In this document: positions 35,789-35,818 of the stretch, in pieces
How the letters are laid out: every line of letters begins with the position of its first letter
How positions within the stretch are numbered: the stretch's first letter is position 1
Origin: Escherichia coli
GTDB taxonomy: Bacteria; Pseudomonadota; Gammaproteobacteria; Enterobacterales; Enterobacteriaceae
Assembly (NCBI RefSeq): GCF_024223415.1
Contig: NZ_CP100500.1
Length of the DNA: 64,000 bases
Reading direction: 5' to 3' (one strand)
The notes under the pieces: generated by a model
Told to the model about the DNA's origin: nothing
Database searches by the model: none
Seen by the model: only the letters and a program-made list of their open reading frames with translations
Program-made: the position numbers and the translations under genes

Positions 35789-35818
35789 AAGGTTTGCCAG
35801 CAGGCAAACCTTATTTTC
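35789..35818 (+). terminator. intra-operon hairpin / attenuator after the major subunit gene
   Basis: aaggtttgcc-agca-ggcaaacctt followed by ATTTTCG. Confidence 0.6.

Follow-up and report, generated by a model that had tools for sequence, protein, structure and literature searches.

The major fimbrial subunit gene yadN of Escherichia coli is followed, in the 64-kb stretch of chromosome analysed here (the window, 64,000 nucleotides of O157:H7/O55:H7 type), by a conserved RNA hairpin with a short U-run that separates it from the chaperone gene of the Yad chaperone-usher operon. We propose that this hairpin probably acts as a leaky Rho-independent terminator within the yad operon and, in addition, as a 3′ protective hairpin for the yadN mRNA. 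An initial annotation, made from the letters of the window alone, had suggested partial termination or mRNA stabilisation by a hairpin at this position, and the indirect evidence presented below supports this functional reading. The elements of the junction are:

35173..35769, + strand: yadN-type major fimbrial subunit gene (O157:H7/O55:H7 allele); Pfam Fimbrial PF00419, E = 1.2e-8; stop codon TAA at 35767-35769
35787..35814, + strand: hairpin with arms ATAAGGTTTGCC / GGCAAACCTTAT and loop AGCA
35791-35798 / 35803-35810, + strand: G+C-rich 8-bp core of the hairpin, GGTTTGCC / GGCAAACC
35811..35818, + strand: U-rich tract TTATTTTC after the G+C core; 6/8 T, nearly invariant in 12 sequences, on the + side only
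35819..35841, + strand: A+U-rich unstructured spacer GCGAATTTAATCTTTCTACAGAC, unpaired in the minimum free energy (MFE) and centroid structures; most variable part of the spacer
35842..35854, + strand: chaperone ribosome-binding region; 4-bp mini-helix AGCA/TGCT with the Shine-Dalgarno sequence AGGAG (35846-35850) in its loop
35856..36581, + strand: periplasmic chaperone gene (yadV/ecpD type); PapD_N E = 2e-45, PapD_C E = 1e-19

Structure and copy number of the hairpin

The letters at 35789-35818 read aaggtttgcc (35789-35798), agca (35799-35802), ggcaaacctt (35803-35812) and attttc (35813-35818), exactly as given in the initial annotation. The 10-bp stem described there is correct in sequence and two pairs too short: the stem is a perfect 12-bp inverted repeat, formed by ATAAGGTTTGCC at 35787-35798 and GGCAAACCTTAT at 35803-35814, which is closed by the tetraloop AGCA at 35799-35802 and directly followed on the 3′ side by TTTCGCGAATTTAAT. 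Five of the 12 stem pairs are G:C, all of them inside the 8-bp core GGTTTGCC/GGCAAACC. The core alone contributes -12.0 kcal/mol and the extended helix -19.5 kcal/mol, whereas the MFE of the hairpin in its 80-nt context amounts to -22.8 kcal/mol (z = -2.8 against dinucleotide shuffles, one of 200 shuffles equalling that value), in line with the stability that had been claimed. The hairpin starts 17 nt past the yadN stop codon and ends 41 nt ahead of the chaperone start. It lies in the sense orientation 3′ of a stop codon and comprises a stable G+C-rich stem-loop, both as found in intrinsic terminators. Moreover, the Pfam assignments, with the PF00419 gene on its 5′ side and the gene encoding PapD_N and PapD_C on its 3′ side, confirm its location between the major subunit gene and the assembly genes, as would be expected for an intra-operon attenuator or stabiliser.

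The palindrome itself folds equally on both strands, and a dimeric DNA-binding protein would likewise tolerate a variable centre. Both points would be compatible with a DNA-level or chance feature, be it a protein-binding palindrome, one copy of a dispersed repeat or mere coincidence. However, perfect 12-nt inverted repeats with a loop of at most 4 nt occur just twice in the window, one of them being the yadN hairpin, and we estimate the chance expectation at ~0.02-0.05 per window, which argues against coincidence. The 28-mer comprising the hairpin has zero matches in shuffled versions of the window and is single-copy in the window as well as in every genome carrying it; the second place that appears in the count is the palindrome matching its own reverse strand. 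As it is single-copy, the hairpin is not a dispersed repeat. A dispersed palindromic repeat of the type of repetitive extragenic palindromes or bacterial interspersed mosaic elements (REP/BIME-like) was likewise rejected, as one locus per window and per genome was found where many copies are expected. An Rfam search at a permissive threshold (E <= 10) yielded no family covering the hairpin, and no RefSeq annotation lies under it in any of 579 E. coli genomes.

The other perfect 12-nt short-loop inverted repeat of the window, ATGTGCCGGATA gtt TATCCGGCACAT at 15264-15290, is located just 3′ of a stop codon between the convergent open reading frames (ORFs) 14631-15254 (+) and 15301-15678 (-). From its position, it is probably a shared or bidirectional terminator.

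The U-rich tract

The short U-tract noted initially corresponds to the U-run proper, UUUU at 35814-35817. The 8 nt past the last G:C pair, TTATTTTC, contain 6/8 T (P = 0.017 in a binomial test against the T content of the spacer itself), and their first four bases can pair with ATAA at 35787-35790, thereby extending the stem by an A-tract/U-tract helix. The T-run is seen on the + strand side only, which again disfavours a feature acting at the DNA level. An 8-bp palindrome, TTCGCGAA at 35816-35823, overlaps the end of the T-run; it is confined to the O157-type allele and is not kept in related alleles.

Conservation of the stem in window-type alleles

Of 5,426 complete E. coli genomes, 421 carry the window-type yadN, and in the majority of genomes the DNA of the chaperone gene is only ~75% identical to that of the window. 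The alignment comprised 12 window-type spacers from E. coli lineages, Escherichia sp., E. albertii, E. whittamii and Pseudocitrobacter. Standard pairs occupy 97% of the stem cells in these 12 sequences, as compared with 46-57% when the partner is slid by one column. In Escherichia (11 sequences), variable columns number 2 of 24 for the stem, compared with 9 of 17 for the 5′ flank, 3 of 4 for the loop and 23 of 24 for the 3′ flank. The loop takes the forms AGCA, GCCA, ATCG, TGCG and GTAA. The difference between the stem (2/24) and the loop plus flanks (35/45) is highly significant (Fisher p = 2e-8, uncorrected for shared ancestry). Besides the stem, the only conserved blocks are the T-run and the ribosome-binding site of the chaperone gene; the mini-helix AGCA/TGCT at the latter, predicted by RNAalifold, is kept in all window-type sequences, and this region varies in 1 of 14 columns in Escherichia.

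The Pseudocitrobacter stem contains two compensatory changes from U-A to C-G pairs, and the commonest stem variant, A->G at 35807, replaces U-A by U·G (35794/35807) on at least three haplotype backgrounds. On the opposite strand the latter would be a C·A mismatch, which indicates that it is the + strand RNA, and hence the yad transcript, that folds. Two weakening variants were observed in a single genome each, G35792A in strain 107 and T->A in the T-run of an O145:H28 strain. Taken together, the alignment indicates that the hairpin is under selection for its structure and pairing.

Unrelated hairpins at the same junction in other alleles and operons

All other yad alleles that were fetched likewise contain a hairpin followed by a T-run at the yadN/chaperone junction, in sequences that cannot be aligned with that of the window. 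The K-12-type hairpin reads ACAGGGAATAA...TTATTCCCTGTTTT, and ACAGGGAATAA...TTATTCCCTGTTTTAATTAA in K-12 and relatives, a second allele type reads GGGAGTAAC...GTTACTCCCTATTTTAATTAA and the strain E69 type AAGAGGCTGTGC..GCAGCCTCTTATTTAT. RNAalifold recovered only 7 pairs from the K-12-type alignment because the loops differ in length, and the stems were therefore read sequence by sequence. Within the K-12-type group we observed a C-G to U-A exchange with a U·G intermediate, and between the K-12 type and the GGGAGTAAC type an A-U to G-C exchange, for which E2348/69 represents the A·C intermediate. The MFE of the spacer is better than that of shuffles in all 16 Escherichia-type alleles (z = -1.7 to -4.4), and in 15 of these 16, representing four independent sequence families, at least 5 of the 8 nt past the last G:C pair are T. 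The yad locus is thus hypervariable in E. coli, with at least four unrelated spacer/hairpin families, which suggests that the allelic lineages are ancient or that alleles were exchanged with other species of Escherichia. The replacement of the arms by unrelated self-complementary sequences, together with the single copy, the one-sided T-run and the U·G variants that pair in the + strand RNA only, leaves the DNA-level or chance explanation largely refuted, and we consider it the least probable of those discussed here.

Several of the loci show signs of damage. E. coli E1624 (locus L009, 1275-1382) has CAA in place of the yadN stop codon TAA, so that the ORF continues up to the base of the hairpin, and its T-run is degraded (TGTTCTAA). 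The chaperone genes of E2348/69 (L007) and 2017.02.03CC (L003) are frameshifted, and the E2348/69 stem also carries an A·C mismatch. The yad loci of these three strains look as if they were decaying. A 670-bp contig of coverage 1 in the assembly of the Gram-positive anaerobe Terrisporobacter mayombei (L017) contains an Escherichia-like yad chaperone fragment with 65% identity, most likely a contamination.

Distant operons were recovered with a chaperone profile search. A strong hairpin right after the subunit gene is present also in Delftia, Marinobacter, Klebsiella oxytoca and Entomohabitans, and three Pseudomonas loci as well as Serratia symbiotica show little or no hairpin at this junction. 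Eight of the ten chaperone-usher operons analysed in E. coli K-12 show significant structure at the junction that follows their first subunit gene, with z = -3.6 for yadN, -2.7 for sfmA, -4.2 for elfA, -5.1 for yraH, -2.8 for yfcV, -3.4 for ygiL, -2.3 for ybgD and -2.7 for gltF/yhcA.

The yad operon in the window

On the + strand, the window contains in this order gluQ, pcnB, folK, a 341-nt A+T-rich spacer, the Yad chaperone-usher operon and panB. The yadN-type gene is annotated as "fimbrial protein" by RefSeq in 100%-identical genomes. The remaining features of the region are:

34832..35172, + strand: folK-yadN spacer with the yad promoter region; A+T-rich, opening with a long A+U-rich hairpin just past folK
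36623..39223, + strand: outer-membrane usher gene (htrE type) with Usher, PapC_N and PapC_C domains
39225..42149, + strand: minor subunit genes yadM, yadL and yadK and tip adhesin gene yadC (K-12 annotation); junctions of 1-20 nt, unstructured
42172..42198, + strand: operon-end hairpin, TCGCACCAGAG ttctg CTCTGGTGCGA, then ACATTTTCC; 87 nt ahead of panB

Only two junctions of the operon are structured, the one between yadN and the chaperone gene (z = -2.5) and the operon end (yadC>panB spacer, z = -4.4); the other internal junctions, 1-41 nt in length, are unstructured. The T-run of the operon-end hairpin is no better than that of the internal one. A consensus scan revealed no promoter-like site on the + strand between 35041 and 38457, and hence none in the gap that separates the hairpin from the chaperone gene, nor in the 3′-terminal part of yadN. 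With a frequency of optimal codons (Fop) of 0.72, yadN ranks highest in the operon; the chaperone gene reaches 0.55, the usher gene 0.53, and the minor-subunit and adhesin genes 0.39-0.52. Codon optimisation is thus strong in yadN and not in the downstream genes, with a sharp drop past the hairpin, as expected if yadN must be made in large excess.

The usher ORF begins with the start codon TTG. Ahead of the operon, the folK stop codon is the starting point of the A+U-rich hairpin at 34830-34882, with TTTCATCC following on its 3′ side; the 75-nt context of this hairpin folds at -23.8 kcal/mol (z = -5.1). The pcnB-folK transcript probably ends here, and the hairpin would thus shield the silenced yad promoter from transcription of the housekeeping genes.

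Termination, stabilisation and read-through

The yad promoter is located upstream of yadN and is repressed by H-NS; in hns mutants all yad genes are up together, though to unequal extents, and the study suggests that regulation differs within the locus (PMC13245861). Placing the O157:H7 Sakai operon behind PtetA (PtetA::ECs0139-0145) results in Yad fimbriae (PMC7098969), and according to a statement in PMC11287998 a non-native promoter driving the operon likewise allows K-12 Yad fimbriae to form. As fimbriae are produced from a promoter upstream of yadN, polymerases starting there must pass the hairpin; read-through is thus documented in the literature.

Against this background it is improbable that the hairpin terminates transcription efficiently, leaving yadN as a transcription unit of its own and the chaperone-usher genes to a separate promoter. 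Junction reverse transcription PCR (RT-PCR) in the enterohaemorrhagic E. coli (EHEC) strain 86-24 did split the yad locus into "three transcriptional units" (PMC11287998), and the primers used match the window exactly, indicating the same allele; the supplement gives the primers, not the failed junctions. In several cryptic fimbrial operons, inhibition of Rho moreover raises mostly the first genes, among them yadN (PMC10980228). However, the 41 nt between the hairpin and the chaperone start, like the 3′ part of yadN, are devoid of a promoter-like site, the PtetA construct yields fimbriae, the yad genes rise together in hns mutants from a promoter mapped upstream of yadN, and the terminator index given below is well under that of strong terminators.

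Alternatively, the hairpin could function without any termination, solely in processing and stabilisation: RNase E would cut the A+U-rich spacer, the hairpin would block 3′-to-5′ exonucleases, and the yadN segment would outlive the rest of the mRNA. The stretch at 35819..35841 is a possible endonuclease entry site, and an unstructured A+U-rich stretch downstream of a stable and conserved hairpin is compatible with this model. In addition, PMC4423207 cites pap and CFA/I as fimbrial operons subject to selective RNA processing and stabilisation, RNase E cuts the equivalent spacer of the fim operon (PMC9723502), and the T-run is lacking in some related hairpins. An exonuclease barrier would, however, not need a T-run, and the T-run is kept in all four Escherichia families and is far more conserved than the spacer beyond it. 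As the two roles are compatible, stabilisation competes with our proposal only as the sole mechanism, and as such we regard it as rather unlikely.

Several observations weigh against a leaky terminator, whose strength we assessed with a d'Aubenton-Carafa-type index computed with modern energies, good for ranking only. The consensus terminator scan, which demands 5 T in 8, did not list the yadN hairpin, since it counts T past the fully extended stem, where only 3 of 8 nt are T; the hairpin was therefore re-scored with our own parser, the tail being counted from the last G:C pair. The U-run is short, and the resulting index of ~0 lies just at the threshold. The K-12 yadN>yadV allele scores -16, other post-subunit hairpins -13 to +21 and three reference terminators +22 to +36. 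The yadN hairpin thus looks weaker than a strong terminator, and the low value relative to the references is why we favour a leaky over a strong terminator. However, the operon-end hairpin scores lower still (-31), and for this reason the index cannot separate leaky from strong terminators here. The T-run is absent from the related hairpins of Delftia, ygiL and K. oxytoca, for which a pure stabiliser role is at least as likely. Likewise, the junction is unstructured in the K-12 fim and yeh operons, which do without a strong hairpin. PMC11287998 does not place the breaks between the three units in its text, leaving unstated whether one ends at the yadN/chaperone junction, and the MG1655 3′-end (Term-seq) supplement contains no yadN entry.

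Despite these points, we consider a leaky terminator that also protects the yadN mRNA the most probable function of the hairpin. Transcription would begin at the H-NS-silenced promoter upstream of yadN, and once the polymerase has passed the yadN stop codon, the nascent RNA would fold the G+C core helix, extended by A-U pairs, ahead of the short U-run. Some polymerases would be released there, giving rise to a monocistronic yadN transcript with a 3′ hairpin that resists 3′-to-5′ exonucleases, whereas others would read through to the chaperone, usher, minor-subunit and adhesin genes. The outcome would be an excess of pilin mRNA over assembly-gene mRNA, fitting a pilus in which major subunits are numerous and the other components few. 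We infer termination at this site and its efficiency, as well as the stabilising effect and the role in stoichiometry, from structure, conservation and position.

A small RNA from the yadN 3′ end

In K-12, the fimA-fimI spacer (L027, 2675-2709), which forms a weak small hairpin (z = +0.1), is annotated as the small RNA (sRNA) FimR2 (b4838). FimR2 is an RNase E-processed 3′UTR fragment that binds CsrA via GGA motifs and regulates motility and biofilm (PMC9723502). The yad hairpin could accordingly be the body of a small regulatory RNA derived from the 3′ end of the yadN mRNA, and the finding that deletion of the yad locus alters the expression of many genes in EHEC (PMC11287998) would be consistent with such an analogue. 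However, its sequence is unrelated to FimR2 and has no Rfam match, its loop AGCA lacks the GGA motif for CsrA (PMC9723502) and varies between alleles, and no small RNA has been reported at this position. Moreover, the replacement of the hairpin by unrelated sequences in other alleles argues against a conserved base-pairing seed. We therefore consider an sRNA function highly unlikely. A further variant, likewise highly unlikely, is that the hairpin is released as a FimR2-like sRNA coupling Yad to surface or virulence programmes, or that read-through is conditionally regulated, with pilin mRNA being stockpiled and assembly switched separately; the genome-wide expression effects of the yad deletion in EHEC leave room for an RNA-borne signal.

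Implications

The hairpin would explain how far more major subunit than chaperone, usher and adhesin can be obtained from one H-NS-controlled promoter, and it is a candidate reason for the uneven yad transcript levels and the "three transcriptional units" in pathogenic E. coli. If so, quantitative RT-PCR on yadN as a proxy for the whole operon would overestimate the expression of the assembly genes, which is also relevant to the engineering of Yad expression. The junction further provides a natural example of a terminator-type structure that is kept by selection while its sequence is replaced, with at least four unrelated hairpins at one junction in one species. The understanding of chaperone-usher operons as such remains unchanged; the design is ordinary and long known, and the interest is practical rather than conceptual. 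A literature search retrieved no paper connecting yadN or yad to a terminator or hairpin; a review of the PapB family does not discuss the papA terminator, and a search on the general principle found nothing.

Comparison with known systems

In the pap operon, a stem-loop directly follows papA, and an abundant, stable pilin transcript is found alongside rarer read-through to the assembly genes. This hairpin/terminator and the differential mRNA stability were reportedly described by Baga et al. in 1985/1988 and by Nilsson & Uhlin in 1991. The yad operon resembles pap in that a stem-loop is located right after the major pilin gene of a chaperone-usher operon. In pap, however, regulatory genes lie upstream and the stable papA mRNA arises from RNase E cleavage between papB and papA, whereas yad lacks a papB-like gene, yadN being its first gene; the two hairpins share no sequence similarity. 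PMC4423207 cites Nilsson & Uhlin 1991 as a case of selective RNA processing and stabilisation.

The CFA/I (cfaABCE; cited in PMC4423207) and K99 (fan) operons are known for differential decay and internal terminators: RNA structures that flank the major subunit gene govern how much of this subunit is made relative to the assembly proteins, as we infer for yad. CFA/I and yad differ in gene order, as in CFA/I the chaperone gene precedes the subunit gene. The K99 operon has the dedicated antitermination-type regulators FanA/FanB. No regulator of the FanA/FanB type is encoded in yad.

With canonical Rho-independent terminators (trpA t, rrnB T1, T7 Te) the yadN hairpin shares the G+C stem, the tetraloop, the U-rich tail, the A-tract/U-tract extension, the position shortly past a stop codon and the sense strand. 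However, the yad U-run is shorter and interrupted (UUAUUUUC, then GCG), and it lies inside an operon whose downstream genes need read-through. Finally, FimR2 has the same position directly after the major subunit gene of a chaperone-usher operon, but its sequence is unrelated, its hairpin is weak and small, and it is defined by RNase E processing and CsrA binding via GGA. The yad element is thus a previously undescribed example of a well-known design.
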